The notes: a model not told the origin generated them from the sequence alone. A stretch of DNA of 64,000 nucleotides from an uncultured Acidobacteriota bacterium (GCA_963741955.1 CAVUKB010000004.1:160001-224000), one strand, 5' to 3'; positions 1 through 20,621 are shown, counted from the first letter of the stretch. Translations and numbers: made by a program.

Positions 1-2
1 GC

Positions 3-938
3 TGGTACGACCCGCAAACCGGCACGTTCATGAGCCCTGACCCTCTCGGCTATCGCGACTCCTCCAATCTATACGCGTTTGCTGGTGGCGATCCGGTCAA
101 TGGTCGCGACCCACTGGGCGAAGGGACCTTGGATAAGGTTGTCGGGTTCTTCCTTCCTGGATGGGACGAGAAAGGTCGCACGGAGACCTCAGCTCGATTG
201 CACGCCGCTGCTGATGCGATTGATGCCACAGCTGAAGAGGCCCTCAACGGGACCGACGATTCTCAGTGGTTCACTCGGTCGGCCGCACAAACCATGCAGC
301 TCGCGTCGGGCTTTTTGCGGCAAGGAGACGCTTCAGGGACTGAGCTAGGTAGTGGCGTATCTCCGTGGCAGGTCGTGCAAAACCGTGTCTACGAGGGAAT
401 GCCTCTCGAAGAGGCGCGGGCGCTGATTCAGGACTGGGATTACCTCAGCGATGAAGACCGAGCGCGACTGATTTCGTTGGGAATCTCGAAGACCGCTGCC
501 GTAGTCGGTGGGGCGCGGGGACTGCAGCAGACAATCTACAAACCGACGCCGGTTCTCCCGAAGCCAAGAAGCACGCCAACTGTAAACCTTGCTAAGCCGC
601 GGCCCTCGGCTCCTGCCCCACGTGTTGAGCCGCCATATGCGGTCACCCGTAGCAACTACGCGAAGAACTTCAAAGCAGTCAGTGCGACTCCGGCGGGTTC
701 CGAAGTTCATCACACGCTCTTCCAAAAGTATCGCGCTGCGTTCGCTGCGCGTGGGATCAACATCGACGAAATGCGTTTTCTTCGTGGCGTAGACCCGAAG
801 GTGCACTCGCGCATAACGACCGCTGTGAAGCGGCTTGAACGTCAGCTCGGCCGTGATCTGACGCCCGAAGAAGTCCTTGATCTCGCAGTCAAGTTCGACA
901 ATGAGTTCAGTGGATCGTTGATCCATCGGACACCTTAA
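3..938 (+). CDS. RHS protein C-terminal part (open at window edge) with HNH/EndoVII-like nuclease toxin domain (cassette 1)
   Basis: The frame is open from nt 3: WYDPQTGTFMSPDPLGYRDSSNLYAFAGGDPVNGRDPLG is the RHS core end with the DPxG cleavage motif. The C-terminus has EVHHTLFQKY...GINID...VHSRIT, a His-rich HNH-type pattern. Confidence 0.85.
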   Translation, partial: WYDPQTGTFMSPDPLGYRDSSNLYAFAGGDPVNGRDPLGEGTLDKVVGFFLPGWDEKGRTETSARLHAAADAIDATAEEALNGTDDSQWFTRSAAQTMQLASGFLRQGDASGTELGSGVSPWQVVQNRVYEGMPLEEARALIQDWDYLSDEDRARLISLGISKTAAVVGGARGLQQTIYKPTPVLPKPRSTPTVNLAKPRPSAPAPRVEPPYAVTRSNYAKNFKAVSATPAGSEVHHTLFQKYRAAFAARGINIDEMRFLRGVDPKVHSRITTAVKRLERQLGRDLTPEEVLDLAVKFDNEFSGSLIHRTP

Positions 939-955
939 CGGCCGGCAGGTACGAG

Positions 956-1309
956 ATGAATCTAAAAGAAGCATTCTTTCAGGATTTAGCGGCTCGCTTA
1001 ACGACGTGGCGCGACGACTTGGTCGCCGCAGTTAAGGATCCGTCTACTGCGGTTTGGGCGGAGTCGCAGCCCGCGATCGCACGGCTACATGGCAAGTTGA
1101 GCGAATCTGACATTGAAGATTTGCGCGTTGTGTTGGACGAGTGTTTTCGAGGGCTACTGCACTCTACGCTCGTCACGATTGACGGCGGGTCGGATGCGAG
1201 CACCTTCGGGAATCTTCAGCTTATTGACGCGGCGACGGGCCAAACGCTAACTGACGGGGCACTTCACGAGGATTTTGTGGAGTACCTCGCGGCTCACGAC
1301 ATGCTCTGA
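956..1309 (+). CDS. putative immunity protein for cassette 1
   Basis: Small acidic 117 aa ORF starting 17 nt after the toxin stop, with the same lower GC as the toxin tip. Confidence 0.7.
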   Translation: MNLKEAFFQDLAARLTTWRDDLVAAVKDPSTAVWAESQPAIARLHGKLSESDIEDLRVVLDECFRGLLHSTLVTIDGGSDASTFGNLQLIDAATGQTLTDGALHEDFVEYLAAHDML

Positions 1310-1322
1310 AGTCGCAGCCGTG

Positions 1323-1753
1323 TCACTCCGGAATCGCCCCCGTGCCGCCGGCGATGCGGTAGGGGGCGAGGAGGGGGCGGAGATCTTTGGGGAGGCCGGC
1401 GAAGGAGTAGCCGCCGCGTTCGGACCATGACTGCGTGGTGGCGATCGAGGTCTTTCGGAGGATGACTTCGAGCAGCTCGTCGTGCGGGTAGAGATACCAC
1501 TCGTCGCCGCTGCCGAACGCGATCCAGATCCCTTTGCCTCGATACTTCTCGGCGAATGCGAGCCTGCTCTTCAACTGCACGCGCAGCACGTCGCCGTTGA
1601 TGTGCAGCGCGATGAAGTCCGCTCCGGCCCAATCATCCGACAGCCGCATCGTCACGAACCCATAGTCGGCGAGCACGGCCGAGATCTTCTGAAAGTTGAA
1701 GTTCTCCTTCTGCCGGGCGTTGAGCCTCGCGTACGCGATCTTCTCGGCGGTAA
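1323..1753 (-). CDS. hypothetical PD-(D/E)XK-fold protein; 5' end probably clipped by the repeat at 1746
   Basis: The 1323..1676 ORF extends upstream in frame as ITAEKIAYARLNARQKENFNFQKISAVLADYGF. Motif GADFIA...RVQLKSR. No ATG is present before the repeat boundary. Confidence 0.6.
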
Positions 1754-2129
1754 TCGCGCTTGGGGGTCACACCTTCGTCTCTCGCTTGTTCCTCTAAGTA
1801 ACCGAATATACGCGGGTTGCGCGTCTGTTTGTCGCAGCGCCAAAGGAATAGAGCGCATGGAATAGCGAAGGAATAGGGTCACGCCTTCGCTCATCGGTTC
1901 TGCCGTCGGAGATCTCGACGGGACGCAGCCGTCGACACGAAGAAGGACCTCTCGATCCTCGACGGGTTCGACCTCGCAAACTTCCGATCTGCGCGAACGG
2001 TCGCCGGCCGCTTCGACCCCGACCAGCGAAAGAAGCTCGGCGAGACCACGTGGAGCCTCGAGCCTGCAACCTGGACTGCGGTGCCCGGTTCGGTTCACGA
2101 AACGAAGTCGCGGACCCTCTCGCTCGAGG
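1746..2129. repeat. 384-bp direct repeat copy 1 (Y1-element end fused to the start of an RHS fragment)
   Basis: Matches 5475..5858 with one mismatch seen. 1761..1929 also matches 19305..19462. Confidence 0.9.
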
Positions 2130-4354
2130 GGCTTCTCCCGAAGAAAGAGCTTTACGCATTCACCAGCGGGAACCGCACCGGCGACGGCGGAGCGACGCTT
2201 CACTACGACGAGAGTGATCGCCTGGTCGAGATCACGACGGCCCAACGACAGATTCTCTACGCCTATGACCCGCTCGACCGCCTCATCGGTCGAACGGTGA
2301 ACGTTCGCGAGTCCGCGGACGTGCCATGGGCGCTCGAGGACCGCACGACCGCGCTGGCGCGGGACGGACTCCCGCCGGCGGTGACGTTCGTATGGGATCC
2401 GATCGCCGACCGCCTCCTCGAGATTTTCGAGGCCGGGAAGGGGCCGAAGACGGCGACCGATCCGCCCAACCTCTACGCGGGGCTGATGCGGCAGTACATT
2501 CACGGAGATCAGGGCTACGACGATCCGATCGAAGTTCTCGCCGCGACCGAGCCCGGCGCACCGCCGAAGCGGTACCTCCCATTCATCGACCCGACCTCGG
2601 GCGGCTCGGTCACCGCGATCCTCGACGCGTCCGGGAACCTGGTCGAGCGCGTTCTCTACGCCGACAGCTATGGCGACGCTCCGCGCTACGTGGAGGGCCC
2701 GGTCATCGACGGGATCAAGGCCGAAGCCGCGAAGGACTCGGCCGGCAAGTTGGAGTCGATCCGGTTCCGCATCCACAGCTCCGAGGCGATCGACGCCGAT
2801 TCGATCGACGGCAATGTCGCGCTGGTCGTCAGAACGGGGAAGAACGTCGACGGAACGCCGATCGAGTCGGATTATCCGCTCGTGGCGAAAGCCGAGGGCG
2901 CGAACGTGGTCCTGGTCGAGCTGGATGCGACTCAGTGGGCGGATCTTGCCTCGGAGGCGACCGAGATTCGTCTCGAGGTCCGCTCGGGCCTCCGTTCTCC
3001 GGCCTGGGGCACGACCCCGGTCCAGCCCGCCCCCGCCTGGGCCACGAAGCTCTACGGTGTACAATCCTCGACGGCGACTCCGGTCGCCTGGAGCGAGTCG
3101 CTCGCGACTCTCTCCATGCTCATTGAGAATACATCGTCCGGGCAGAGCTCCGAGAAAACGCTCTACGAGATCCCCGATCTCTACCTCGCCGCGACCATCG
3201 ATTCGAAGACGAAACTCTTCACCGGGTTCAAGGCTGCACCGTTTGTCGAACCCGCCACGGGACTGGTCTACCTCCGCAATAGATGGTACGACCCTAGTAC
3301 CGGCACGTTCTTGACTCCGGATCCTGCCGGATACACCGACTCCTCGAACCTCTACGCGGCGTTCGCCAACGACCCGGTTAACAATTCGGACCCGTTAGGC
3401 CTAGAGAGTATCCGGCAATGGTTCGCCGCTGACGAGGACATTGCGGAAGGCGATTGGGCCTCGGGCTACGGGAAGAAGGGCGTTTACTTTGCTTGGAACG
3501 CTCTGACATTCGGATTCCTTGGCCGGCATGACGCAATTTACGAGGACTACGAGGCGTCCGGAGACACCGGGGCGTACGTCCGTGGGACGGGCGTTGAGAT
3601 TGGTCGAGCTGCCGTCATCGGGGTCGCTTCTTACTACACGGGTGGCCTCGCCGGAGGTTCGGCGACGACGTTCGGCGGGGCCGTTGTCCGAGGCGCTGCC
3701 GGAGGAGCCGCATCCGGCTTGGCAGTCACCGGCGCTGGCGATGTTTACGACCGGCTAACCGGCGGACCCGGAGCGACGTTTGAGGACTACGCAGCCGGAA
3801 TGACCGGTGGCGCGATCTTCGGCGGCGTTGCGGGAGGCATCAACTACCGGTTGACCTCAGGATCAGCCACTCCAACTGGACTAAGCCGTGGCGCTCGACT
3901 GCGCGCCAGGTACGGAAGTATCTCTCGCGAGGAACTCAATGCTCGCATCAACGCGCGCGGGGTCGAAAGTGCCATTCAGAAGAACGCTGAGCAATCCGCG
4001 GGTCTGGGGCGGCTTGATCGGACTCGTGGGTTGATCACGGAAGGACCTCAGGCGTTTGGGACTCGGGCCCATCTCTTCTTCGAACGTCTGAACAATCGTC
4101 TCGCCAGCCGGCTCGCCGGTACCGCGAGAATCACAACCGAAGAGTTCAGGAACCCGCTCGGCCGGGTGGTTTTCCCTCGCAGTGCGGGATCCATCGGGGC
4201 AGACGTCACCGTCAGAGGTTGGACGGGCGGTCCGCTCCAAGTCTTCGACCTCAAAACGTATGGCACGGTTCAGCGCCCAATCAGTGCGGCGCGCCAGCTT
4301 GAGTTCTTGGTTCGTTTTGGTGTCAGGGCGACCGAAATCTTCGTTCGGCGATAA
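2081..4354 (+). CDS. 5'-truncated (orphan) RHS core with restriction-endonuclease-fold toxin (cassette 2)
   Basis: YD repeats (YDESDRL, YAYDPLDRL) and core end TGLVYLRNRWYDP...DPVNNSDPLG. A Gly-rich linker leads to a tip FGTRAH...GADV...VFDLKT (PD-(D/E)XK-like). RHS-like sequence continues in frame upstream to about 1931, so 2081 is not a native start. Confidence 0.88.
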   Translation: MPGSVHETKSRTLSLEGLLPKKELYAFTSGNRTGDGGATLHYDESDRLVEITTAQRQILYAYDPLDRLIGRTVNVRESADVPWALEDRTTALARDGLPPAVTFVWDPIADRLLEIFEAGKGPKTATDPPNLYAGLMRQYIHGDQGYDDPIEVLAATEPGAPPKRYLPFIDPTSGGSVTAILDASGNLVERVLYADSYGDAPRYVEGPVIDGIKAEAAKDSAGKLESIRFRIHSSEAIDADSIDGNVALVVRTGKNVDGTPIESDYPLVAKAEGANVVLVELDATQWADLASEATEIRLEVRSGLRSPAWGTTPVQPAPAWATKLYGVQSSTATPVAWSESLATLSMLIENTSSGQSSEKTLYEIPDLYLAATIDSKTKLFTGFKAAPFVEPATGLVYLRNRWYDPSTGTFLTPDPAGYTDSSNLYAAFANDPVNNSDPLGLESIRQWFAADEDIAEGDWASGYGKKGVYFAWNALTFGFLGRHDAIYEDYEASGDTGAYVRGTGVEIGRAAVIGVASYYTGGLAGGSATTFGGAVVRGAAGGAASGLAVTGAGDVYDRLTGGPGATFEDYAAGMTGGAIFGGVAGGINYRLTSGSATPTGLSRGARLRARYGSISREELNARINARGVESAIQKNAEQSAGLGRLDRTRGLITEGPQAFGTRAHLFFERLNNRLASRLAGTARITTEEFRNPLGRVVFPRSAGSIGADVTVRGWTGGPLQVFDLKTYGTVQRPISAARQLEFLVRFGVRATEIFVRR

Positions 4355-4370
4355 GGAGGTGTTCAAGTTG

Positions 4371-5039
4371 ATGACTCCGGACGAGCTATTCCGCTATGCT
4401 GACCAGAAGCTGGGGCCAGCACTCTCCGCTGAAGGTTTTTCGGTTGGCCAGAATGGCGAGTTTGTTCGCGAATCGAGTGAGGGGTTGGATCGGGTTCTTC
4501 TCGACACGGACAGCAGAAAGGCGAAATTTTATGTCGGGTTGAGCTTCTACCCTGCCGAGATGGAAGTTCTGACTGACTTCCTCGGCGGGGAGGACCGGGG
4601 ATTTCCCTGTGGTCCCTATCTTACCCCTGCTGGGGTCAGGCGCGGGAAATACCGATGGTCTTATCAGCCGCAACACCTCGAGTCGTCTATGAAGAAAGTT
4701 GAAGAACTTCTCCAGTCTGTCGGGCTTCCTTGGCTGCGTCAGCTACGGAATCCGGAGTTCTTTGCGGCAGAAGTTGATCCTGAGGCGTTATTTGATGCTG
4801 GTCTGGCTCATGAACGCGCTGGCCATCACGCCAAAGCCGGGGAGATTTACCTGCGGTTGTTCGATCGATTTCGCGAGATGCTCTCGTATGCCGGTGATGA
4901 TCTCGTCATGAGAGAATCGGGCAAGCGGTTTATCTTTGTCGCCGAGAAACTCGGAGTAGAACCCGAGAGGGTTCGCCGGTTCCGGGAGTACCACCAGTAC
5001 TGGAGGCCGATCCCTCGTCTCCGGGATTCGTCGAGCTGA
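4371..5039 (+). CDS. putative immunity protein for cassette 2 (DUF4304-like N-terminus)
   Basis: An AAGGAGG RBS overlaps the toxin stop, followed by TTG/ATG at 4368/4371. N-terminal LGPALSAEGF pattern; directly downstream of the toxin. Confidence 0.7.
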   Translation: MTPDELFRYADQKLGPALSAEGFSVGQNGEFVRESSEGLDRVLLDTDSRKAKFYVGLSFYPAEMEVLTDFLGGEDRGFPCGPYLTPAGVRRGKYRWSYQPQHLESSMKKVEELLQSVGLPWLRQLRNPEFFAAEVDPEALFDAGLAHERAGHHAKAGEIYLRLFDRFREMLSYAGDDLVMRESGKRFIFVAEKLGVEPERVRRFREYHQYWRPIPRLRDSSS

Positions 5040-5474
5040 AGTCTCCTGATGCGAGACAGACGTCCTCAGAAACTCCGTCCGGAAGGCTCGATGCTATTGA
5101 AGGCCATTGGGGTCACCCATTGGGGCGCATTGTCAAGGCGGGCGGAAAATGAGGCGCCGCCTTTTGAGGTCTTTCGGAAATCGAGTGGACTGAAAACGGA
5201 AGGTCCCGGCTATGGAAAGTGGAAAAGGCTCCCCGTCCTGCTCAGAAACTCCGAATTGACGGTTCGATGCTATTGAAGATGGCGAACGACATCACGATCC
5301 CGGAGGAATTCGACGGGCGACGGCTCCGAGATCCGGTTCGAAGCGAGCAGACGGAAGCGCGATCGGGACAAAGGAGCCCGAAGGCGGTGGTGGTTTCGTC
5401 CTGCGGGCGATGTTCGAGCCAGGGTCCGAGGCGGACGCGGTGAACGGGTTTCGACTCGAACGCTCAGGCGACCA

Positions 5475-5858
5475 GGCGGTAATCGCGCTTGGGGGTCACA
5501 CCTTCGTCTCTCGCTTGTTCCTCTAAGTAACCGAATATACGCGGGTTGCGCGTCTGTTTGTCGCAGCGCCAAAGGAATAGAGCGCATGGAATAGCGAAGG
5601 AATAGGGTCACGCCTTCGCTCATCGGTTCTGCCGTCGGAGATCTCGACGGGACGCAGCCGTCGACACGAAGAAGGACCTCTCGATCCTCGACGGGTTCGA
5701 CCTCGCAAACTTCCGATCTGCGCGAACGGTCGCCGGCCGCTTCGACCCCGACCAGCGAAAGAAGCTCGGCGAGACCACGTGGAGCCTCGAGCCTGCAACC
5801 TGGACTGCGGTGCCCGGTTCGGTTCACGAAACGAAGTCGCAGACCCTCTCGCTCGAGG
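5475..5858. repeat. 384-bp direct repeat copy 2, cut by IS66
   Basis: Duplicate of 1746..2129, ending exactly at the IS66 inverted repeat. Confidence 0.9.
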
Positions 5859-5922
5859 GTAACTCCTCGCCGTACCCCGTCTTGACTGCCGGAGGCGACG
5901 GCAGAGTGGTGGGTAGAGGTCG

Positions 5923-7425
5923 TTACGAGAGAAGTTCGGCGGGGAGAACGACGATCCCGGGATTGGCGATCGACTTCCTAAGGGCGTAACTGAGGTAGGC
6001 CTTCGGCTCGACGCCGTGGAGCTTGGCGGTCTCGATGAGGGTGTAGTAGAGCGCCGCGACCTCGGTGCCGCGCCGGCTTTTCGAGCCGTAGTGGTTCTTC
6101 CGTCCGACGACCAGACCGCGAAGGGCGCGCTCGGTCGCGTTGTTGTCGAGCGGGATCCGCGGGTCATCGATGAAGCGGGTCAGCCCTTCCCACATCCCAC
6201 GGGTGTAGGCGATCGCCTTTCCCAGCCCGCTCTGCGGAAGAGCCGGGGTGAGCGAGATCCGACTCCAGAATCTGCCGCACCACGCCACGCGAACGCGTCT
6301 GGCGCAACTCGAGACGCAGAGCATCGCCCTCGCGCCCCGCAGGTGCGAGGGCGTCGATCGCGTACAGCTCCCGAATCAGAGCGAGCATCTCGCCGCTCTC
6401 GGTGGGGAAGTTCTCTTCGGTCTCGATGAACTTGCGTCGGACGTGCGCCCAGCAGTGCACGACGATCAGATCGGGCGAACCCCGCGAGAGCGAGTCGTAC
6501 GCTCCGTAGCCGTCGGCCATCACGATCCCGCGAAATCCTTCGAGCACCGTGGCCGCCGCCTGGGTCGAGCGGCTGTCGAGAATCCGGTAGAAGCTCGCTT
6601 CTTCGCTCGTGACGTTCCAGACCCACCAGCGCTTGTTGGTGCGCTCTTCGCCCCGGCTCGTGAGCATCAGCCATCGCGTCTCGTCCGCCCCGACCACGTC
6701 CGCCGCGAGCACCATCTGCAGGATCGCATCGTAGGTCGGCAGCAACGATCGCGCTGCCGCTTCGATCTGATCCCACAGCGTCTGTGAGGTCACCACGAGC
6801 CCTTCGCGGCGCATGATCCGGCACTGCCGCTCGAGCGGAAGGTGATCGAGATACTTCTGGGTGATCACCTCCACCGTGAACCCGGTCCCATACCGCCCTC
6901 CGGGGATCAGCTTCGCCGGTCCGGGCGCCGTCACGACGCACCCGTTGCAGCCGCAGCGATACTTGCGACGCCGATGACGAACCAGGACGAACCGTCGCTC
7001 CACGACGTCGACCTCTTCCGACTCTTCGAACTGATCGCCGAGCGGTTCGAGCGACCCGCCACAGCTCGGGCACTGTTGCTCGCCCGGCGGCAGCTCGTGC
7101 TCTTCGCTCACCAGTTCGAGCTCCGGCTGTTCGGTCGGACCATGACCCTTCCGAGGCTTTTCTTCCGCGCCCTCCTCGGAGCTCTTCTCGTCAGACTTGC
7201 GCTTCTCCGACGAGCGGCCGAAGATCCTCCGCTCACGCATCGCGAGCAGCTCGCGGAGCATCTCGATCTCGGCCTGCGCCTTCGATGCGATCCGATTCCT
7301 TTGAGACGACTCAGCTCTTCAGTGGCAATACGGAGCTTGTCGATCAGGCGGGTGTTCTCGTCCGAGAGAAGAAGGGCGATCTGCCGTAGAACTTCCGGAT
7401 CACTCTCCCTCTCAATCGGCCGCAC
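5923..7425 (-). pseudogene. tnpC: IS66 DDE transposase TnpC with two frameshifts (about 7290 and about 6260)
   Basis: Three overlapping ORFs (7108..7425, 6164..7261, 5923..6324) together give the coiled coil, FGRSSEK, CPSCGG zinc finger, ADET, DGYGAY, CWAHVRRKF and LDNNATERALR...GRKN motifs. Confidence 0.9.
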
Positions 7426-7471
7426 GAGTATGTATTATGCAGATATACACCGCTCCTTCAAGGGCTTTCTG

Positions 7472-7846
7472 TTACAAGTGTGTACGTTGTGTGTGAACTG
7501 TGTATAGAGGCGGAGACAGAGGGAGCCGGCCGCGCAGTTCCATCCCTTCGAGAAGCAGTTGCAGCTCACTCGTGGTCAGCTGCAAAGGTCCTTCCGCACC
7601 GCAGCTCCAGGGCGCGCTGAACCGGCCCTGCTCGAGCCGCTTCGCATACACGCACAGTCCCGTTCCATCCCAGAGCAGAACCTTCGCTCGCTTCCGGTTC
7701 CGGCTCACGAACAGATACAGCTCGCCGGAGAGCGGATCTTCTCCGATCTTCTCCCGCACGATCGCCGCCAACCCATCGAACGACTTCCGCATGTCCACCG
7801 GCTCGTCGTACGCCAGTACCCGCACGCTGCGGGAGCCCGTGATCAC
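7472..7846 (-). CDS. tnpB: IS66 accessory protein TnpB
   Basis: PVDMRKSFDGL...LFVSRNRKRAKVLLWDGTGLCVYAKRLEQGRF signature. Confidence 0.95.
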   Translation of the reverse strand: MITGSRSVRVLAYDEPVDMRKSFDGLAAIVREKIGEDPLSGELYLFVSRNRKRAKVLLWDGTGLCVYAKRLEQGRFSAPWSCGAEGPLQLTTSELQLLLEGMELRGRLPLSPPLYTVHTQRTHL

Positions 7847-8202
7847 CCGACTCTCCGCAGCAGCTCTGCCAGTCCGTCGAGGGTCAGCCCCTCGACTCGA
7901 ATCCCGGAAGGCGTGATCACGATCGCGGATGACGCCCGGAGCTCATCAGATGCTCCCGATCCCGCCTCGACCAACTCCACGGCCCGGAAGCTCCCGCCCC
8001 GCCGCTGCTCCCACTTCGCGAACGTGTAGCGGTTCACTCCGAGCTCCTCTGCGATCTCCGAATCGCTCTTGCCTTCGGCCCGCGCCTGTCGCGCGTAGAG
8101 CACCGCACGTTCCCTCAGCTCTCGCGGATACCGCCGACGCTCTCGCCGCCGGCTCTGCCGCTCCAGCTCGCGCCGCAGCTTCTTCACTTCCCGATCGATC
8201 AT
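7843..8202 (-). CDS. tnpA: IS66 TnpA (HTH) protein
   Basis: RRYPRELRERAV...IAEELGVNRYTFAKW HTH and FRAVEL...VITPSGIRVEGL; overlaps tnpB by 4 nt. Confidence 0.85.
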   Translation of the reverse strand: MIDREVKKLRRELERQSRRRERRRYPRELRERAVLYARQARAEGKSDSEIAEELGVNRYTFAKWEQRRGGSFRAVELVEAGSGASDELRASSAIVITPSGIRVEGLTLDGLAELLRRVG

Positions 8203-8276
8203 CGTCCGCTCCTTTCCCGGAGAAGACTGACCGATCCGCTGCCTCAACGCCAGACGGGGTACGGCGAGGAGTTACC

Positions 8277-9009: not shown

Positions 9010-9065
9010 TCGAGGCCCGTCCCGACGTCCTCGCGAGCGACGGGCTTCCGGCGGACGTCACGCTC

Positions 9066-11695: not shown

Positions 11696-11716
11696 GGGAA
11701 TCGTGATCGGAAGATC

Positions 11717-12370
11717 GGGGCCAGGCCTTCGATTCTCGCTTGCAGGTGTAAGCGACTCGATGGTCTGTAGTTAGCGACACGGTGACTTTGACTCTGAACG
11801 GAGAAAGCGGGGTGAGCGCGTCGCTTCTCGGATAATTCGTAAGATGCTCGATCGAATGCGGCGTAGTGGACTGGTGTCGATGAAGATCGGAACGGATTCG
11901 GCCTCCGTCTCGTGGCGAAACCTGGACCGGGCGTCACTTGGAACGAGGCTCCGCCAGGGCGAATCGTGAAGAGTGGTCAGTCTTCAGGCCGATCGCGCCC
12001 GCCTCAGAACGGTGGTGGGCCGGCTGAGTCGCGGATGATGTCCGGGGGCGGGAGCATCGGCCAGATCGGGACGGGCCGCTTCGGAGCGGATTCGGGGACT
12101 CCGGCCTGAAGCGACGCGAGGCACTGGTCGGCGAGAACGCGAAGGAACGGATCATTCGCGAGCTCGCGCTCGCAACGCGAGATCACGTTCGAGACATGCC
12201 CGGTGCTGCCGAGGCGCAGGGTGGCCGCGATCGGGCGAAGCCGTTCGGCGCTCTCGTAGCGCCCGAGCCACGATGATCGAGGCCATTCTCGGCTCAGCCC
12301 CTCCCGCGGCACGCCTTATCCGAGGTGCCTTCGGACGGCGGCGGAGTTTCTCATCGGTAAGGCCTGATCT
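11717..12370 (-). mobile_element. remnant of GGGGTCA-type Y1 (RAYT-like) transposase element: end plus transposase C-terminus
   Basis: End GGGGCCAGGCCTTCGATTCTCGCTTG at 11717. 12000..12272 is homologous to 19633..19905 (WLGRYESAERLRPIAATLRLGSTGHVSNVISRCERE). Confidence 0.65.
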
Positions 12371-12380
12371 CGACTCTCCA

Positions 12381-12641
12381 CTATTCGTACGCTTTGCTGC
12401 GATGGCGTATCCGCACGATGTCGACGGCCCTTTTTCTGTCATCAATCGCGTAGATAACGCGCCAGTCGCCCGCGCGAATGCGCCACAGATCGAGCGCACC
12501 TTTGAGCTTCTTCACGCCTGGAGGACGCGGATTGCTCGATAGTGCGGCGATCTTCGCTTCGATCCGTGATGCGATCGTCGGCGCGAGCTCGTCGAATTCT
12601 TTCGCTGCCGATGGCTTGACGGTGATGCGGTATTCAGCCAC
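12381..12641 (-). CDS. RelE/ParE-family type II toxin
   Basis: MAEYRITVKPSAAKEF...NPRPPGVKKLKGALDLWRIRAGDWRVIYAIDD...IRHRSKAYE; GTG start overlaps the antitoxin end. Confidence 0.93.
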   Translation of the reverse strand: MAEYRITVKPSAAKEFDELAPTIASRIEAKIAALSSNPRPPGVKKLKGALDLWRIRAGDWRVIYAIDDRKRAVDIVRIRHRSKAYE

Positions 12642-12828
12642 GCGCCTGCCGTCGGCGTCGTGCAAGCCGGCGTCGGACGACATCGAATGGGATGCTCTTC
12701 TCCGCCTGGCGCTCCTCGGCGACGAGCTGATCGTAGAAATCCTCCCACGCATCGCCGTACAGATCGAGGTCGATCAGGACGGCGACCTTTTTGCCCTTGT
12801 CGTCGGTCACGAAGTGAATCCCTTCCAT
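12634..12828 (-). CDS. cognate antitoxin (RelB-like, 64 aa)
   Basis: MEGIHFVTDDKGKKVAVLIDL...EDFYD...SIPFDVVRRRL, upstream of and overlapping the RelE gene, with a GGGAG RBS. Confidence 0.85.
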   Translation of the reverse strand: MEGIHFVTDDKGKKVAVLIDLDLYGDAWEDFYDQLVAEERQAEKSIPFDVVRRRLARRRRQARG

Positions 12829-12928
12829 CTCATCTCCCGAGTCGGTCGTTCGCCGAAGCTTTCGCCATCCGGTGTGTACAACATGATCGCACGAATGAGG
12901 CTTCCCGGGACGCACTCCACGTGAAATC

Positions 12929-13148
12929 GACCTGACCCCCGCCGACTTCCGCTCCGGCCAGGAGCGCATGCCGCAGCTCGACTCGGCGACGCGCTCGGTT
13001 CTCGCCTCGCGCGGGATCGACCTCTCGCTCCTCGACCCGCCGTCGATGACGGCCACCGAGTCGGCGGCGGGACACAAGATCGAATCGATGACCAGCGGCT
13101 CCACGACCGAGACGCTCCACTACCCGCAGTCGCAGAGAACCGAGGATG
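12929..13148 (+). pseudogene. RHS core fragment (5' piece of cassette 4)
   Basis: Near-identical to 8421..8640 (DLTPADFRSGQER...HYPQSQRTED). Confidence 0.85.
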
Positions 13149-13157
13149 AGAAGAATT

Positions 13158-13350
13158 GGGGTCAGGTCTTCGTCTCTCGCATGCTTCCGTTAAACCACTG
13201 TGGAAGCGTCACTTCGACTCATCCCATCGCGCCGTGGATTGTACGGCATCCACGCCGACGCCAGCCGTTCCTGCCTCCGCTCACCCTCCTCGAGACCCGT
13301 CTCCGATTCTACGAGGGGTAGAACCTCGGTATTTCGCGAAAGCCGAGGTA
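13158..13350 (+). mobile_element. upstream end of the GGGGTCA-type Y1 element (diverged copy, inverted relative to 20040..20234)
   Basis: Starts GGGGTCAGGTCTTCGTCTCTCG and ends in CCGATTCTACGAGGGGTAGAACCTCGGTATTTCGCGAAAGCCGAGGTA, colinear with the reverse complement of 20040..20234. Confidence 0.65.
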
Positions 13351-13370
13351 CTGTGGGGGTCAAAAACGAT

Positions 13371-14755
13371 TGTCACGTCGGATTAGGAGTGTCGAAGTGG
13401 CGAGAGAGGCGTGCGAGAGGGAGCTCCGCCGACTCGGTCGATCGTCTTTCAAGGCGAGGCCGGATCGAATTGTCGCCATTCGAGGCGGTGATCCGCTGAG
13501 GATCTGACGTGGAGGTAGCGCTTTCGCTCTCGGCCTGGTCGGCCGCGGCGGATGATCTTTGAAAAGCAGTTCGGTCTGACGCTACGCTGCGCGATCGCGC
13601 ATCTCGAGCCGGTACTCGTGATGGAGCCCGCCGAGGTGCGGGATGGCGACGACGGCGGCGCCGTTCGGGAGTCGGTGTCGGCCGGAGGCGATGAGCCGGG
13701 GTTCGGTGTAGTAGGCGCGGTAGTGGGCGAGAAGGCGATTGAGGTGGCGGACGCCGAGGGGCCAGATCCGGTCGAGAAGCTCGCGACGGAGGGTGCCGAT
13801 CATCCGCTCGGCGAACGCGTTCGCCTGCGGAGAGCGCGGAGGGATGCGGAGCGCTTCGATGCCGAACGAGGCGAGAGTCGCGTCGACACCGCCCCAGAGC
13901 GGGTCGTTGTCGCGGACGAGGAAGCGGTGCCGATGATCGCACGGGATCGCTTCGCGCAGCTTCTGATTGATCCAGTCGCGAGTCGGGTTTTCCGTTGCTT
14001 CGAGGCATAGCAGCCGTCGTGACCCGATCTCGAGCAGGACGAGGACGAAGACCTCCCGGAGCTTGCCGCTGAGTGAGGGAACGTAATCGACTGCGAAGTC
14101 CATCGCGAGGGTGACGTTCGCATGGTTGCGGATGAACGCCGACCATCGCTGATCGCCACGCGGGCGCGGGCCACGTACCTCGCGAATATAGCGGCGGACC
14201 GTGTTCCGTGAGACGGAGACCCCGAGCTTCGCGATCTCCCGGAGGATCCGCCCCGCTCCCCAGAGCCGGTTCTCGCGCGCCATCTGCCGCACGAGCTCGC
14301 GCGTCTCTTCCGGGAGCCTGCGCCGCCGCAGATGCGCTGACGCCGCCGCATCAGAATCGCGACCCACTCGCGCCGCCATCGCATCACCGTGCGCGGGGTG
14401 AACGCGATCGAGAGATCCCTCCAACGAGGTACGAGCCGCGAGAGGATCGCGAACACGATCTTCTCGCTGCGCGTCGCGCGCCGGACGCTCCTTTTCGTCA
14501 TCCGATACAGCCGCAGCTGCCGCTCGAGCCAGAGCGCGTCGAGCGTATTCGCTTGAACGAGCGTAAGGCTCAGAAAGACGATGACGAGCAACTCGCCGAG
14601 AGCGGAGAGGAGAAGAAGAGAGCGGAGCAAGAGTTGACCTCGTGAGGGGCGCGGCACTTGGTGGGCGTGCGCGCTTGGCGAAGGATCATATCAATGCGAA
14701 GATCCGTCTGGAACGGCGTCTAAGGGGACGGAGTCGAATACCCGTCGACGTGACG
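13371..14755 (-). mobile_element. IS481/IS3-like element with rve integrase-core transposase
   Basis: Short inverted ends TGTCACGTCG (13371) and CGACGTGACG (14746-14755) flank the transposase pseudogene. Confidence 0.55.
13582..14657 (-). pseudogene. integrase-core (rve) DDE transposase, frameshifted near 14340
   Basis: N-terminus (TPRTVMRWRR) lies in ORF 13800..14657. MARENRLWGAGRI, AMDF, LVRDND, SPQANAFAERMIGTLRRELLD and LGGLHHEY lie in ORF 13582..14424. Confidence 0.88.
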
Positions 14756-14775
14756 CGGTAATGCGATGAATTCGA

Positions 14776-15138
14776 TCAAGAGCGCGACTCTCGATGAGTC
14801 GAGCGGGAAGTGATTTCAACGAGAGTCTCGCCATTCTCGATCATCCGGAGTGCTTCCGGCAGGGCCTTCTCGAGGAGGTGCCGGAGAAAGGCGTTCGATG
14901 TGTTACCCGAGGTAATCCAGATCACCCGGGGCGGTGCACCACGGCTCTCGAGAAGGCGAGGGAAGTCGGCATCTTTCGTGATCACCACCGCATCGGCCGT
15001 ACGTGCGGCGTCGAAAATCTCGCGATCGGATGCATCGCGCAGACCGAGTCGTTTGATCGAAAGAGCCTCGACATCGAAGGTGGCGGTGATCCACGGCGCG
15101 AGCTCGGGAGAGAGTTGTGCGTCAACCCAGAGGATCAT
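14776..15138 (-). CDS. DUF5615 PIN-like toxin (VapC45-like)
   Basis: MILWVDAQLSP...LRDASDREIF...VITKDADF...PPRVIWITSGNTSN. Confidence 0.9.
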   Translation of the reverse strand: MILWVDAQLSPELAPWITATFDVEALSIKRLGLRDASDREIFDAARTADAVVITKDADFPRLLESRGAPPRVIWITSGNTSNAFLRHLLEKALPEALRMIENGETLVEITSRSTHRESRS

Positions 15139-15359
15139 GCTGCGATCACAGGATGGTCGATACGGTGACTCGCGTACCGCAGGCTCGCCTGAATGTCCTC
15201 GATCTCGAGGTCCGGCATTTCGATCAGGATTTCGTCGGTGGTCAACCCCGATGCAAGGAGATCGAGGACGTCGGAGACGCGGATGCGCATACCGCGGATG
15301 CAGGGACGACCTCCACACTGTTCCGGATCGATCGTGATTCGGGGTTCGAATTCAACCAT
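15135..15359 (-). CDS. DUF433 antitoxin
   Basis: RITIDPEQCGGRPCIRGMRIRVSDVLDLLASG...EDIQASLRYA; ATGA overlap with the PIN gene. Confidence 0.93.
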   Translation of the reverse strand: MVEFEPRITIDPEQCGGRPCIRGMRIRVSDVLDLLASGLTTDEILIEMPDLEIEDIQASLRYASHRIDHPVIAA

Positions 15360-15458
15360 TGACCGTTCTCCTTCGACTCGAAGCGCGCCAGATTCTGCGA
15401 GAACAGAGTATAGCTGCCGCAGAGTCTTCGATCCAAACCGGATGCCCATCGGCTGGCG

Positions 15459-16305
15459 ACCGAGAAGCCCACCTCCGCGAACGGGGAGATCCGGCGGATC
15501 CGGTATGACTACGACTGCAACGACCGTCTCGTCGGACGCCGCGCGGAGATGGCCGAGGTTACCGATCCCGCGGCGGACCTCGCGACGCTCAGCTGGGAGC
15601 TCGAGGCCCGTCCCGATGCCCTCGCGAGCGACGGGCTCCCGGCGGACGTCACGCTCGTATGGGACCCGCTGTCCGATACGCTCGTCTCCATCTTCAAGGC
15701 GGGGGCGAGCCGGAACGCATCGATCGATGCAAACGGCGGGCTCCTCGCGCAGTTCATCCACGGCGGGCTCTCGTACGACGATCCGATCGAGACCACCCGC
15801 GTTTCCACGCGCCCGGGCACGACTGGCAGCGAGATCGACCGCTTCTATCCGGTCTACGACGAGGCCGGGACGGGGAATCTCGACGCGGTGCTGAACGCGA
15901 GCGGCGAGATCGTCGCGCGCAACGTGCCGAACGATCCGTTCGGTGCGCACGAGCTGGATCTCAACGGCGCCGCGGTCGACGGGATGGCGATCGACGCCGC
16001 AAAAGACCGCGACGGCAACCTCACTACGGTGGAGGTCACGGTGCGGACCACCGAGGCGCTGAGCGCGCCGACGCTCGCAGCGGGTCTGCGGCTCGCGGCT
16101 GTGGACGGCGGGGGAGCGGTGGTAAGATCGTCGGGCGCAATCCCGCAGCTCATTGACAACGATCCGTACTCGGCACGCTTCACGCTGACGGCGGCGCAAT
16201 GGACCGCACTGACGGACGCGTCTCCGGTGGGGACGCTCACGCCGGCGGCGCTGTCGGTGGCGGTGACGAAGGAGCTCCGGGCCGCGGCGTGGGGAGCGGA
16301 TGTCC
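15459..16305 (+). pseudogene. RHS core of cassette 4, upstream of a +1 frameshift
   Basis: Near-identical to 8688..9716 without the MITE. An extra C in GTCCCCGATC at about 16304 (GTTCCGATC in cassette 3) shifts the frame. Confidence 0.85.
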
Positions 16306-17550
16306 CCGATCCTCCCGGCGCCCGACTGGGCGACGGCGACACAACCTGTGACGACCTCCGGCAATCTTCCGGTGGAAGTGCGCGAGTCGCTCTCGAGCCT
16401 CTCGAGCTGGCTCGCAGGGGTTCCGGCGGACGGCGACGACAGGAAGACGCTCTACGAGGTCGATTCGCTCGCCCTCCTCGCCTCGGCGGCGCCCCCGTCC
16501 TCTATGTCGGGCGGCGGCGAGAGCCCGATGGGCGCGATGCTCACGGCCCGCTTCCAGGCGCAACCCTTCACCGAGCCCCTCACCCGCCACAACTACGTCC
16601 GCGCCCGCTGGTACGACCCGGACACCGGAACGTGGCTCTCGCCCGATCCGATTGGATACCGCGATAGCTCGAACCTGTATGCGTTCGCGGGCGGCGATCC
16701 GGTGAACTGCGCAGACCCTACAGGCCAAGCGGCGTCAGTGACCAAGACGGGTTTGGTGGTCGGCCGACGGCCGGACGGCACGTCCTACCGGATCGAGCCG
16801 GGGGCCGACTCGGCGGAAATGATGCGCATTCTGGAGACCGACGCTGACGTTGGGAGCGAAGAGCGCGAGGAGATAATAGAGACCGCTCTGCGCCGGGGGC
16901 CGGGGTCGATCAGCGCGATGAGGGGGAGTCCAGGCCCTGGCGCGTTCTGGTGGGCGGTCGACACAGCAACCGTTGGCTTCTTCTCTATGCCCGGTGGCAA
17001 CTACAGTCCGTTGAGAGAAGACGAACCTGTCCAGGCGTCGCTCGATCTGCGAACTTTCAAAAGGGAATATCCGAAGACGATCTTTGTGGCGGACGCCGCG
17101 CAAGCGCTGACGGCGAAAGGCTGGGCTGTGAAGGCGATGGGAATCGTCGGCGCAGGTCTTGGTCTCGCCGACAATCTTGGTCGCAGCAAGCCTCTGCAGC
17201 CTGGCGAATCTGGGCGATTCTCGGATCTGGATCGACGCGGTGTTACCGGGGATGACCTGACGCCACATCACATGCCACAGGCCGCCGCTGGCTTCACGTC
17301 CAGAGAAGAGGGTGGCGCTCTCGTAATGGAGCATGGAGAGCACATTCAAACGCGAACGTACTTCAGCAAGGGGCGAGCTGTCGCGAGAGCGGAGGCCGGC
17401 ATGTCGTTTCGCGATGTGCTGGCACGCGACATTCGCGATGTTCGGAAGATCGTCGGGACGGAGTACGACGAGGGGATCTTGCACCTGCTCAAGTACTACA
17501 GAAAGTATTTCCCTGAGCTGATGGAGAAAGTGGCAAAGGTGGCGAAATGA
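16300..17550 (+). CDS. RHS core end with HNH/EndoVII-like nuclease toxin (cassette 4)
   Basis: RARWYDPDTGTWLSPDPIGYRDSSNLY...DPVNCADPTG, then a tip GDDLTPHHMPQ...GGALVMEHGEHIQTRTY...LARDIRDVR. Confidence 0.85.
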   Translation: MSPILPAPDWATATQPVTTSGNLPVEVRESLSSLSSWLAGVPADGDDRKTLYEVDSLALLASAAPPSSMSGGGESPMGAMLTARFQAQPFTEPLTRHNYVRARWYDPDTGTWLSPDPIGYRDSSNLYAFAGGDPVNCADPTGQAASVTKTGLVVGRRPDGTSYRIEPGADSAEMMRILETDADVGSEEREEIIETALRRGPGSISAMRGSPGPGAFWWAVDTATVGFFSMPGGNYSPLREDEPVQASLDLRTFKREYPKTIFVADAAQALTAKGWAVKAMGIVGAGLGLADNLGRSKPLQPGESGRFSDLDRRGVTGDDLTPHHMPQAAAGFTSREEGGALVMEHGEHIQTRTYFSKGRAVARAEAGMSFRDVLARDIRDVRKIVGTEYDEGILHLLKYYRKYFPELMEKVAKVAK

Positions 17551-17843
17551 TCCGTAAAGAAGTTCTGGAGCTAAAGCTTCTTGGGCCGCTGCCGGATCAG
17601 CACGCAGATGAAGAAGCGTTCGAAAGGCACGAGAAGGTGCTGTCGGCGATTACGCCGCCTGTCAGTGCTGAAGAGGCGAAGATCCTCGTCAGACTGTTCG
17701 GGCCGGATGACGCATACGGCGCAGCATGGACGCTTCTTCATCTGATTGAGTCTGCGCCGAGTTGGCCAATCGAGGAGTGCCTGCGGGGCGCCGGTCTGTG
17801 GATTGACACCCTCCGGCGTCGGGCGGCCGATCTGAAGCGGTAG
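17547..17843 (+). CDS. putative immunity protein for cassette 4
   Basis: 98 aa ORF with ATGA overlap on the toxin stop; LFGPDDAYGAAWTLLHLIESAPSWP pattern. Confidence 0.8.
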   Translation: MIRKEVLELKLLGPLPDQHADEEAFERHEKVLSAITPPVSAEEAKILVRLFGPDDAYGAAWTLLHLIESAPSWPIEECLRGAGLWIDTLRRRAADLKR

Positions 17844-17936
17844 TGTCCAAAAAGTTCTGCAAAAAGGAAAAGGGCCAAGGAGGTCTCCTGTAAAGTTCAA
17901 GTCGCTAAAGCAAGAACGAGAACAGGAGAGAACTCG

Positions 17937-19127
17937 ATGGCCCGAAAGGATAGTACCGCAGTTGACGTCAGAAGACTCGTCGAGGAGTCCGCAGATCCGG
18001 TGCGAGCGATCGTGAAGGAGACGATCCAGCAGATTCTCGAGTGCGAGATGGAAGAGGCATTAGGGGCTCGGAACGGGGAACGAACAGCGGAGCGGCTGGG
18101 GTACCGAAGCGGGTACTACGAACGGTCGTTCATCACTCGAGTCGGGAAGCTTGAGCTCCGGATTCCGCAGGACCGAAAGGGACTGTTTCGAACGGAGTTG
18201 TTCGAGCGGTATCAACGGAGCGAGAAGGCGTTGTTCGCGGCGTTGACGGAGATGTACGTGCAAGGGGTGTCGACGCGGAAGGTCAAAGCGATCACCGAAG
18301 AACTGTGCGGACACTCGTTCAGCGCGAGTTCGATCAGCGAGATCACAAAAAGGCTGGACCAGCAGTTGGAGGCCTTCGCGAAGCGAAAGCTGGAAGAGGA
18401 GTACCCGTACCTGATCATGGACGCGAGATACGAGCGGATCCGAGAGAACGGAACGATCCAGAACCGAGCAGTGCTGATCGCGATCGGGATCAACAAGGAT
18501 GGACGGCGTTGCATCCTGGGAGTGGAGCTGGCGCACCGAGAGAGTCGGAACAGTTGGACTGAGTTTCTGGTGGGCCTACGCGAGCGGGGCCTGCACGGGG
18601 TCGAGTTCGTGGTCAGCGACGACCACGCAGGGCTGAAGGCTGCGATCCGGGAGGTACTGACCGACGCGGCCTGGCAGCGCTGCTACGTCCACTTTCTACG
18701 AAACGCACTCGATTACCTGCCAAGACGAGGAGATCACGACTGCCTGCAGGAGTTGCGATGGATCTTCGGGCGACGCAACGTCGAGGAGGCCCGCAGAGAC
18801 CTGGCGGCTTGGATCGCGAAGTGGGAAGGAAAGTATCCGAAGCTATGCGACTGGGTAGAGCAAAACATCGAAGAGACGTTGAGCTTCTATCGGTTGCCGG
18901 CCGAGCACCACAAGCACCTGAAGTCGACCAACATGCTCGAACGGCTCAACGAAGAGATCAAGCGACGGACCCACGTGGTCCGGATCTTCCCGAATGAAGC
19001 AAGCTGTCTGAGGCTGGTCCGGGCGCTGGCGGTCGAGACGCATGAGAACTGGATCGAGGCGACTCGGTACCTGAACATGGATCTGTTGGCCGAACACAAG
19101 AAACTCATGCTGCGAGGTGTCGCGTAG
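17937..19127 (+). CDS. IS256 (mutator-family) transposase
   Basis: GYRSGYYER...IPQDRKG, MYVQGVSTRKV, VVSDDHAGL, WQRCYVHFLRN, STNMLERLNEEIKRRTHVVRIFPN. Confidence 0.97.
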   Translation: MARKDSTAVDVRRLVEESADPVRAIVKETIQQILECEMEEALGARNGERTAERLGYRSGYYERSFITRVGKLELRIPQDRKGLFRTELFERYQRSEKALFAALTEMYVQGVSTRKVKAITEELCGHSFSASSISEITKRLDQQLEAFAKRKLEEEYPYLIMDARYERIRENGTIQNRAVLIAIGINKDGRRCILGVELAHRESRNSWTEFLVGLRERGLHGVEFVVSDDHAGLKAAIREVLTDAAWQRCYVHFLRNALDYLPRRGDHDCLQELRWIFGRRNVEEARRDLAAWIAKWEGKYPKLCDWVEQNIEETLSFYRLPAEHHKHLKSTNMLERLNEEIKRRTHVVRIFPNEASCLRLVRALAVETHENWIEATRYLNMDLLAEHKKLMLRGVA

Positions 19128-19134
19128 GAACCAA

Positions 19135-19190
19135 GGGGTGTGGAAACTGCGGAAAACGCCGGTCGGCGTTTCCCGCAGTTTCCACACCCC
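19135..19190 (+). terminator. long hairpin after the IS256 transposase
   Basis: GGGGTGTGGAAACTGCGGAAAACGCC-GGTC-GGCGTTTCCCGCAGTTTCCACACCCC, an almost perfect 26-bp stem with no U-tract. Confidence 0.5.
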
Positions 19191-19306
19191 CCCACCACCA
19201 TCAACCCATGGATCCGAGGAGAACCGAACAGGAGACCCAATAACTCTAGTTTTGCAGAACTTGACAGACACAACTTCTGAAGCGATAGCACGAGAAGGTG
19301 GGGGTG

Positions 19307-20234
19307 GGGGTCACGCCTTCGTCTCTCGCTTGTTCCTCTAAGTGACCGAATATACGCGGGTTGCGCGTCTGTTTGTCGCAGCGCGAAAGGAATAGAGCGC
19401 AAGGAATAGGGTCACGCCTTCGCTCATCGGTTCTGCCGTCGGAGATCTCGACGGGACGCAGCGGGAAGCGGACGTAGAGACCGTGGTCGGGATCCAATGA
19501 GGTCGTCTCGATCGGTTGGAATCGGTGATCAGGCCATCGAAGTCTCGCTTCGGAAGCGATGAGGCTGCAGTCCAGACGCAGCTCCGCCCTGAAGTCGTGG
19601 AGGTCCGGGTGATTTGGAGCAACCTGGCGCGTCGCCTCAGAACGGCGACGGGCCGGGTGCGTCGCGGATGATGTCTGGCACCGGGAGCATCGGCCAGATC
19701 GGGATGGGCCGCTCGGGAGCGGATTCCGTCGTCCCCGCGAGGAGCAATGCGAGGCAGCGATCGGCGAGATCACGGAGAAGCCGGTCATTCGCGAGCTCGC
19801 GCGCTCGCAACGCGAGATCAGGTTCGAGACGTAGCCGGTACTGCCGAGGCGCAAGAGGGCCGCGATCGGGCGAAGCCGTTCGGCGCTCTCGTAGCGCCCG
19901 AGCCACGCGGTCAGCGGGTGAGGAACACTAGGCGATCCGCATCGCATCGGAAGATCGGCTTGCGCTCGTTGCGGCGCGAGGTCACGTGGAAAACCGCGCC
20001 GGGGAACTCGAGGCGAAGTGGTCGTGCCATGCGATCGAGAATACCTCGGGTCTTCCGAAATACCGAGGGCTCTACTCCTCGTGGAATCGGCGGCGACTCC
20101 CGAGGCCCTGCTTGGAGGCGCGAGTCGGTGATCCGGCAGCGGGTGTCGTAGAATATCGTGCGACAAACGAGGCGAAGAAGTAACGCCGTGACAAAGAGAT
20201 AGGGGAGAGAACCGACAGGCGAAGCCCTGACCCC
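19307..20234 (-). mobile_element. GGGGTCA-terminated Y1 (RAYT-like) transposase element with internally deleted transposase
   Basis: Left end GGGGTCACGCCTTCGTCTCTCG; right end (reverse complement) GGGGTCAGGGCTTCGCCTGTCG. Both the N- and C-terminal remnants of the transposase lie between them. Confidence 0.7.
19637..20030 (-). pseudogene. Y1/HUH (IS200-like, RAYT) transposase with catalytic core deleted
   Basis: N-terminus MARPLRLEFPGAVFHVTSRRNERKPIFRCDADRLVFL is joined at about 19912 to the C-terminal helical part AWLGRYESAERLRPIAALLRL; the HUH and Tyr motifs are missing. Confidence 0.85.
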
Positions 20235-20235
20235 A

Positions 20236-20475: not shown

Positions 20476-20480
20476 CAGCC

Positions 20481-20554: not shown

Positions 20555-20621
20555 CGAGCGATCTGGTGGTGGCTGGCGAGCCGGACGGTCGCAGGCTATG
20601 ATGGCGGGGGAATAGAACACC

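Follow-up and report, generated by a model that had tools for sequence, protein, structure and literature searches.

Decayed TIRtron copies as probable passengers in an RHS toxin-immunity array of an uncultured Acidobacteriota bacterium

A GGGGTCA-type motif recurs through an array of rearrangement hotspot (RHS) toxin and immunity genes in the first 20 kb of a 64,000-nt stretch of DNA from an uncultured Acidobacteriota bacterium (GCA_963741955.1 CAVUKB010000004.1:160001-224000; hereafter, the window). The motif is the terminal inverted repeat, about 26-36 bp long, of a TIRtron, a small mobile element with a RAYT-like Y1/HUH transposase, TIRYT (TnpA_REP subclass 2.1), that ends in a DNA-binding domain resembling DnaA domain IV. 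Four independent TIRtron insertions lie in the 20-kb RHS array, and every copy is now defective. We consider it probable, at about 75%, that these dead elements are passengers in a permissive, decaying RHS array and not a cassette recombination machine. An earlier reading of the same DNA, made from its letters alone (the sequence-only reading), had proposed that six motif copies may mark a system that shuffles RHS cassettes in an integron-like way. Rather than cassette sites, the six are terminal repeats of four whole insertions, now decayed, and of one segmental duplicate.

The recurrence of the motif is non-random. The 26-nt pattern GGGGYCASNNCTTCGNYTNTCGSWTS, which fits every end in the window, has six exact matches there against 0.02 expected, at the positions that the sequence-only reading had named: 1763, 5492, 11717, 13158 and 19307 on the plus strand, and 20209-20234 on the minus strand. 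The 15-nt core GGGGYCASNNCTTCG is matched ten times in the 64 kb with at most one mismatch, against 0.74 expected. A profile built from 17 ends (five from the window and 12 from the related loci described below) gives nine matches with E<0.001 in the window, all inside 1763-20234; between 20235 and 64000 there is no motif, and the best profile match has E=1. A 15-mer match at 8417-8431 was rejected as an end: it lies inside RHS coding sequence, fails the 26-nt pattern and reaches a profile E of 0.14. Four of the five distinct window ends fit GGGG[AT][CG]A[CG], the exception being the end at 11717, which starts GGGGCCAG and has C at position 5. Each left end also holds a subterminal second copy of the motif, overlooked in the sequence-only reading, in the same direction and 92-112 nt (about 100 nt) inward; these copies lie at 1875, 5604 and 19408 (two mismatches each) and at 11809 (three mismatches). 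When four distinct ends were folded as single-stranded DNA (ssDNA) on both strands, they did no better than shuffled sequences (z -1.1 to +0.5), and a reading of the ends as hairpins like those of repetitive extragenic palindromes (REPs) or attC sites was dropped after this result. By eye, the flanks of five window ends and of the 21 external matches hold no shared target sequence outside the ends.

That the ends belong to a Y1 (HUH) transposase element, as the sequence-only reading had it, is borne out by gene remnants in the window that are 74-92% identical to P0002, their nearest full-length relative (350 amino acids (aa); Pfam Y1_Tnp, E=2.5e-12, 47 bits against a cut-off of 23). At E<=0.001 the family of P0002 spans 43,732 cluster representatives, and 2,518 are left at E<=1e-30; the residues H60/H62 and Y119 are almost invariant among 51 of its relatives. 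In a PDB search, the profile made from 51 relatives hit DnaA domain IV across its final ~120 positions (E=2.6e-11), with a weak hit to the TnpA_REP structure 4er8 (E=0.0075). In a Foldseek search with an AlphaFold2 (AF2) model of P0002 (pLDDT 89.6), 4er8 came first (TMt 0.71), followed by the IS608 and ISDra2 transposases, and the DnaA DNA-binding domain 3pvp_B fits the tail with TMt 0.88 and a root-mean-square deviation of 1.4 Å. Pfam run on the single P0002 sequence did not report a C-terminal Bac_DnaA_C domain at E<=0.1. Single-sequence phmmer of P0002 against the PDB yielded nothing but a spurious peptide deformylase match, and profile and fold searches were needed. Among 72,556 plasmid records, 29 match P0002 and none does so at >=80% coverage, a count that is uninformative on the RHS question.

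TIRtron B (19307-20234, minus strand) keeps both inverted-repeat ends. Its gene is reduced to aa 1-38 (20030-19917) and aa ~249-350 (19947-19640), with a frameshift at 19801; aa 39-257 are lost, including the HUH motif (H60, H62) and the catalytic tyrosine (Y119). No target duplication was seen at B, and its right end at 20234 directly adjoins a 5'-truncated group II intron, an adjacency also observed in the sequence-only reading (Rfam RF00029 lies at 20482-20554). TIRtron fragment C (11717-12315, plus strand) consists of a left end, with the repeat at 11717 and the subterminal copy at 11809, and the last 90 transposase codons (aa 261-350, minus strand 12276-12007), 79% identical to P0002. TIRtron fragment D (13158 to ~13350, plus strand) is a right-end-type terminus with the leader that stands upstream of the transposase gene, as 13288-13350 matches 20105-20042 in inverted orientation at 80%; it is cut before the start codon, by a remnant of an IS481/IS3-like element, and itself interrupts RHS cassette 4. 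No partner end of C or D was found in the window with up to four mismatches or by profile; 15360-15458 resembles one vaguely.

TIRtron fragment A (1763-1929, plus strand) is a left end of 167 nt, with the 26-nt repeat at 1763, the subterminal copy at 1875 and a fusion to RHS sequence at 1929/1930. It is of the B type: 1761-1929 matches 19305-19462 at 91.7% in direct orientation, with divergence at 1929/1930 in A, which passes into RHS, and at 19462 in B. The match at 5492 is a duplicate of the one at 1763 and hence not an independent event. The segment 1746-2130 is 99.7% identical over 385 nt to 5475-5859, and the duplicate (5475-5858, plus strand), which is cut by an IS66 element, comprises 17 nt of flank, the left end A' (5492-5658) and ~200 nt of RHS. 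The repeat that flanks cassette 2 on either side thus takes in 17 nt of flank foreign to the element together with 201 nt of RHS, which marks it as a segmental duplication; the duplicated unit is 3,729 nt long and starts beside A, and the other border, at 5474, lies outside any element. The fusion to RHS cassette 2 reported in the sequence-only reading is therefore real as a junction at 1929/1930, but it lies 167 nt inside the left end and not at the terminus, and its second occurrence is a segmental copy.

No intact transposase gene is present in the window, where tblastn with P0002 finds remnants only, and any mobility would need an enzyme supplied in trans, as the sequence-only reading had stated. 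The catalytic part of the transposase is gone from every window copy. The gene remnants (B, C and the leader in D) lie within 9 kb of each other, and the window copies are of at least three sequence types. In this sample, the DnaA-domain-IV-like tail is the part of the transposase that repeatedly survives. The B deletion stops near aa 258, very close to the truncation of C at aa 261; the proteins P0001 and P0071 (191 and 110 aa) are C-terminal-only open reading frames (ORFs) from elsewhere; and L019:1338-1804 is a repeat-bounded piece of ~467 nt that overlaps a match to aa 216-316, the match extending ~90 nt past the right repeat.

Elements of this kind are already in print. TIRtrons have been described as a RAYT-like gene between long inverted repeats that share GGGGWSAS, with repeats in dimers and clusters and with a sharply defined Acidobacteria group among them (Di Nocera et al. 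2013, PMC3733652), and TIRYT as TnpA_REP subclass 2.1 with Bac_DnaA_C/HTH tails, its GGGG[AT][CG]A[CG] motif being unlike the DnaA box (Quentin et al. 2018, PMC6006769). Of the four features that we compared, a Y1/HUH gene, GGGG[AT][CG]A[CG] inverted repeats and a Bac_DnaA_C-like tail are found here, and dispersed repeats in dimers or clusters are found in the related loci. Where those descriptions give few copies per genome, the window is more IS-like, with four decayed copies, of at least three sequence types, inside 20 kb. It also differs in the C at position 5 of one end and in its subterminal repeat, of which the TIRtron passages of those papers (PMC3733652, PMC6006769) make no mention.

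REPIN-RAYT systems (Bertels et al. 2017, PMC5581495) are similar in the fold of the enzyme (4er8 is the best match), in the short inverted doublets found in intergenic DNA of the relatives, and in the rarity on plasmids (29/72,556). Their repeat unit is an imperfect palindrome of 20-40 nt with a GTAG (or CGTC) tag, and their transposase gene is single-copy and resembles a housekeeping gene in behaviour. They differ from the window elements, whose ends have neither a GTAG tag nor a hairpin, whose transposase gene is not single-copy (three remnants: B, C and the D leader), and whose enzyme has an extra DnaA-IV-like domain. The IS200/IS605 family lacks terminal inverted repeats and has subterminal hairpins instead, at both ends and on one strand (PMC6006769). 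The window element resembles it in the Y1_Tnp domain, in the HUH and tyrosine residues of full-length relatives and in the lack of a target duplication seen at B, and departs from it in having inverted repeats and no detected hairpins. With no hairpin in its ends, it belongs neither to the classical REPs nor to IS200/IS605.

An exact-pattern scan of genome contigs returned 21 related loci, mostly from Thermoanaerobaculia and other Acidobacteriota metagenome-assembled genomes and none from the contig of the window. Eleven of these contain additional copies of the motif or a Y1 gene, another two (L003 and L004) are single copies in Acidobacteriota metagenome-assembled genomes, and 8/21 are single matches that are possibly due to chance. 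Locus L016 holds a 1,539-nt element between inverted repeats at 2001 (+) and 3539 (-), and its ORF, like that of L007, encodes a Y1_Tnp protein (53-56% identical to P0002). Six inverted doublets of 55-134 nt, in five related loci, are a miniature non-autonomous form of the element, and tandem motif copies occur in L001, L006, L007, L008 and L016. At the ends of the intact relatives, two or three repeats stand in tandem (L016:3440-3539 and L007:2001-2270), much as the subterminal copies do in the window. Such repeats suggest that each end may carry several protein-binding sites. Protein P0007, from another contig, follows the TIRYT frame until it stops matching at aa 151 and continues as a translated repeat end ('ELWGQGFA.RFS') like that at 20234 in the window, which suggests that one TIRtron may have inserted into the gene of another.

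These 21 loci give no sign of an association with RHS. Ten RHS or immunity translations taken from the window have no match at any of them, and RHS is likewise absent among 25 flanking ORFs at 13 of the loci. The flanking ORFs include an AMP-binding enzyme, a gamma-glutamyltranspeptidase, a shikimate kinase, a MutY-like protein, a NadR-like ATPase, a LuxR regulator and a radical SAM protein, and two of the 25 are toxin-antitoxin genes. The motif lies 20, 24 and 28 nt behind ORF ends in L007, L008 and L001, next to housekeeping-type neighbours. A spacing of ~20 nt after the stop thus recurs in relatives and is not special to immunity genes. The sequence-only reading had proposed to map the ends in this and related genomes and to look for enrichment at RHS/immunity junctions; in these relatives they stand behind housekeeping genes, with RHS at 0/21 loci. 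Toxin-antitoxin genes (ParE-like; DUF5615/DUF433; PemK; Phd) adjoin TIRtron ends in the window and in L005 and L009, either as cargo or as neighbours.

The array itself has the form of an RHS orphan array, in which a core end, a variable tip and a small ORF are repeated with 5'-truncated cores: four ORFs carry TIGR03696 core ends, and each continues into an unrelated tip followed by a small ORF. Toxin and immunity roles were assigned from position, and no Pfam toxin domain was found. Cassette 1 (3-1309, plus strand) comprises a core end (TIGR03696 at aa 1-39 of ORF 3-938), a C-terminal tip that ends at 938 and, at 956-1309, a candidate immunity ORF without a Pfam match. It is separated from end A by a PD-(D/E)XK-family gene (1323-1754, minus strand), whose 5' end adjoins A; A thus stands beside this gene and not behind an immunity gene. 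The 1101 homologues of the PD-(D/E)XK gene are ~143-145 aa long, and one carries the name PD(D/E)XK endonuclease domain protein; their methionine aligns with an ATT codon at 1752-1754, and the third-position GC content (GC3) of the gene is 0.87. Cassette 2 (1930-5474, plus strand) has a 5'-truncated core with a core end at ~3404 (TIGR03696 at aa 390-441 of ORF 2081-4354), a candidate immunity ORF at 4182-5039 and, in its region, a weak sub-threshold Pfam match to DUF4304. It also keeps an open frame, 1877-4354, that begins within left end A.

Cassette 3 (8276-11695, plus strand) has a core cut at the IS66 end, a core end at ~10125, a tip to 10934 and a candidate immunity ORF at 10928-11695; there is a premature in-frame stop at 8994. 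Cassette 4 is in two parts, a 5' piece (12929-13151, plus strand) that is 94% identical to 8421-8643 of cassette 3, and the rest (15459-17843, plus strand), with a core end at ~16729, a tip to 17550, a candidate immunity ORF from 17547 that is interrupted by IS256, and a frameshift between 16267 and 16665. Between the two parts lie D, an IS481-like remnant and a DUF433/DUF5615 pair, and ~44 nt of RHS are missing. Identity between cassettes 3 and 4 is 92-94% as far as the core end, beyond which the two sequences diverge. From the end of the immunity-3 ORF at 11695 it is 21 nt to the motif at 11717; the immunity-4 ORF (17547-17843) is split by IS256, and its pre-insertion stop (19286-19288) lies 18 nt before 19307. 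Both spacings agree with the sequence-only reading. Its broader statement, that an end follows every cassette, does not hold, as 2/4 cassettes have one within 21 nt: cassette 1 is set apart by the PD-(D/E)XK gene, and the site of cassette 2 is a duplicate. The terminus at 13158 does lie at the break in cassette 4 (13151/13158), as had been noted, but it is of right-end type and interrupts the cassette rather than following it. The four insertions are therefore placed just behind immunity stops in two cases, inside an RHS core in one and beside an unrelated gene in one.

In the history that we favour, these elements would have been moved by an intact TIRYT whose gene lies at another place in the genome. 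The short intergenic gaps right behind stop codons may be where TIRtrons come to rest, or may just be where they persist, which would explain why two of them stand 18-21 nt behind immunity genes. Later deletions and other insertions would then have cut the TIRtrons along with the RHS genes. A was copied again by the 3.7-kb segmental duplication. Besides the TIRtrons, the array received an IS66, an IS256 and an IS481-like element as well as a group II intron and two toxin-antitoxin pairs, and it would be a tolerated dumping ground for mobile DNA. The RHS-2 junction, at 167 nt inside the left end, fits deletion and not Y1 cleavage; by analogy with IS608-type chemistry, a Y1 enzyme would be expected to join DNA at the terminus. 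We favour the passenger reading because IS66, IS256, the IS481-like remnant and the intron occupy the same array as the TIRtrons.

Several points weigh against this explanation. All four insertions lie in one 20-kb array; (20.2/64)^4 is ~0.01 by simple arithmetic, a real concentration, which the permissive-island argument explains and does not prove. Two independent left ends stand 18 and 21 nt behind immunity stops. B joins the immunity-4 tail to a truncated intron, and as these may never have been neighbours, at least one rearrangement took place exactly at an element terminus. The non-RHS DNA of the host genome that was surveyed for ends amounts to 44 kb of the window, and the external scan demanded an exact match to a strict pattern, which samples few copies per genome.

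The mechanism proposed in the sequence-only reading, with TIRYT in trans using the ends as attC-like sites to capture, delimit or reorder RHS toxin-immunity cassettes and toxin-antitoxin cargo, appears very improbable. It would account for left ends 21 and 18 nt behind two immunity stops, for the recurrence of one left-end fragment to either side of cassette 2, for termini at the RHS-4 break (13151/13158) and the intron truncation (20234/20235), and for the toxin-antitoxin pairs that adjoin C and D. However, the repeat flanking cassette 2 is explained by segmental duplication, since it carries the 17-nt foreign flank and 201 nt of RHS, and the RHS-2 junction is internal to an end by 167 nt. 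What comes after ends C and B is a transposase remnant and not the next cassette, and cassettes 3 and 4 are bordered on their 5' sides by the IS66 end and the ParDE module; the 5' break of cassette 2 falls in a TIRtron, at an internal point of left end A. Four ends form no ssDNA hairpin (z -1.1 to +0.5), the 21 related loci have no RHS near the motif, and the window has no intact enzyme. Integron-like capture and shuffling is accordingly not supported, in view of the internal RHS-2 junction, the other 5' breaks at IS66 and ParDE and the 0/21 related loci with RHS. The array resembles an integron with its attC sites and IntI in that a repeat stands shortly behind the stop of two cassettes and in that the enzyme is expected to act on ssDNA. 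It differs in that the window has no adjacent recombinase, attI or promoter, and in that its sites are hairpin-less ends of decayed elements with unrelated 5' borders; a site 3' of every cassette, with bounding on both sides, is not seen (2/4 cassettes have an end within 21 nt).

A passive role, in which dead TIRtron pieces serve as dispersed homology and host recombination between the A and B left ends amplifies or deletes RHS cassettes, is unlikely. The two left ends are ~92% identical over ~160 nt, have the same orientation and bracket the array, and the 3,729-nt duplication unit begins beside A. No A-B recombinant is visible in the window, however, and the duplication borders lie 17 nt outside the element and at 5474, outside any element, so that the sole readable rearrangement did not use element homology. 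That the motif would be a REP-type sequence of the host, with a regulatory or terminator function at operon 3' ends and with transposase genes merely adjacent, is extremely improbable. The motif does lie 18-28 nt behind stops in the window and in three related loci, and gene-less inverted doublets occur in five loci; yet left end and transposase tail are arranged alike in B, C, L007 and L016, the gene lies between inverted copies in B and L016, the ends fold no better than shuffles, and no copy follows any of 38 ORFs in 20.2-64 kb. Passenger TIRtrons in a permissive array thus remain our preferred explanation.

An IS-like element downstream of RHS tips is not without parallel. H-rpt, which stands in this position in E. 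coli, belongs to the ISAs1 family. It is habitually found downstream of Rhs tips and orphan modules and has no shown role in moving them (in the passages on H-rpt of PMC3032704). The window is similar in having IS-like sequence just downstream of RHS tips; the element type is unrelated and the host is of another phylum. In literature searches, which were not designed to exclude one, we found no paper that links TIRtrons to RHS. A role for TIRtron ends as drivers, in which TIRYT in trans or host recombination on the ~160-nt left ends would repeatedly duplicate, delete and import RHS tip-immunity modules, is decidedly unlikely. If shuffling were true, a single-strand HUH enzyme would be added to the ways in which bacteria diversify polymorphic toxins, and if the ends did drive module turnover, TIRtrons would shape the toxin repertoire in Acidobacteriota. 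With the preferred reading, the window offers a clear case of decaying TIRtrons that can be annotated, from an uncultured lineage of Acidobacteriota, and shows RHS orphan arrays as a sink for mobile DNA of many kinds. By means of the motif and the 350-aa family, such remnants can be recognised in annotation and not misread as new cassette sites.

The other mobile DNA (IS66, IS256, the IS481-like remnant and the group II intron remnant) all lies within the same 20 kb as the TIRtron copies. The IS66-family element (5859-8275, minus strand) has three genes, a frameshifted transposase gene among them (Pfam DDE_Tnp_IS66, zf-IS66, TnpB_IS66, HTH_Tnp_1), and inverted ends at 5855-5882 and 8252-8279. 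It joins the cassette 2 duplicate to RHS cassette 3 and has no 8-bp target duplication (flanks CTCGAGGG and CATCAACC); with no such duplication and with cassette 3 on its other flank, IS66 sits on a recombinant junction. The IS256-family element (17840-19276, plus strand; Pfam Transposase_mut, 9e-147) has inverted ends and an 8-bp target duplication, CTGAAGCG. An IS481/IS3-like transposase remnant (13373-14657, minus strand) is spread over two overlapping frames (Pfam rve_3 and HTH_32; 82 bits with the NCBIfam IS481 model, below its cut-off), and a border search did not resolve its inverted repeats or element borders. The group II intron 3' remnant (20235-20560, plus strand) is recognised by Rfam RF00029 (46.4 bits, 20482-20554, RNA domains V-VI); ORF 20203-20475, which has no Pfam match, is presumably the tail of the intron maturase. 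The two toxin-antitoxin pairs are a ParE/RelE-like toxin gene with a small upstream ORF (12381-12831, minus strand; Pfam ParE_toxin, 6e-14), this ORF (12634-12831) being a candidate antitoxin from its position, and a putative DUF5615 (PIN-like)/DUF433 pair (14776-15359, minus strand; Pfam DUF5615 6e-23, DUF433 2e-24).

The rest of the window, from 20.2 to 64 kb, has 38 GC3-supported ORFs with metabolic and regulatory Pfam matches and no transposase. Two intergenic tandem arrays, at 40236-41248 (period 268, 3.8 copies, 91%) and 61516-62025 (period 170, 3.0 copies, 99%), have a common core of ~73-116 nt; they match no Rfam family at gathering score, and their RNA folds are not clearly above shuffles (z -1.7 to +0.2). 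A 14-nt microsatellite (ATCGAGGATCGAGT) is repeated nine times at 58821-58949, at the 3' end of the DUF1275-family ORF 58024-58947.

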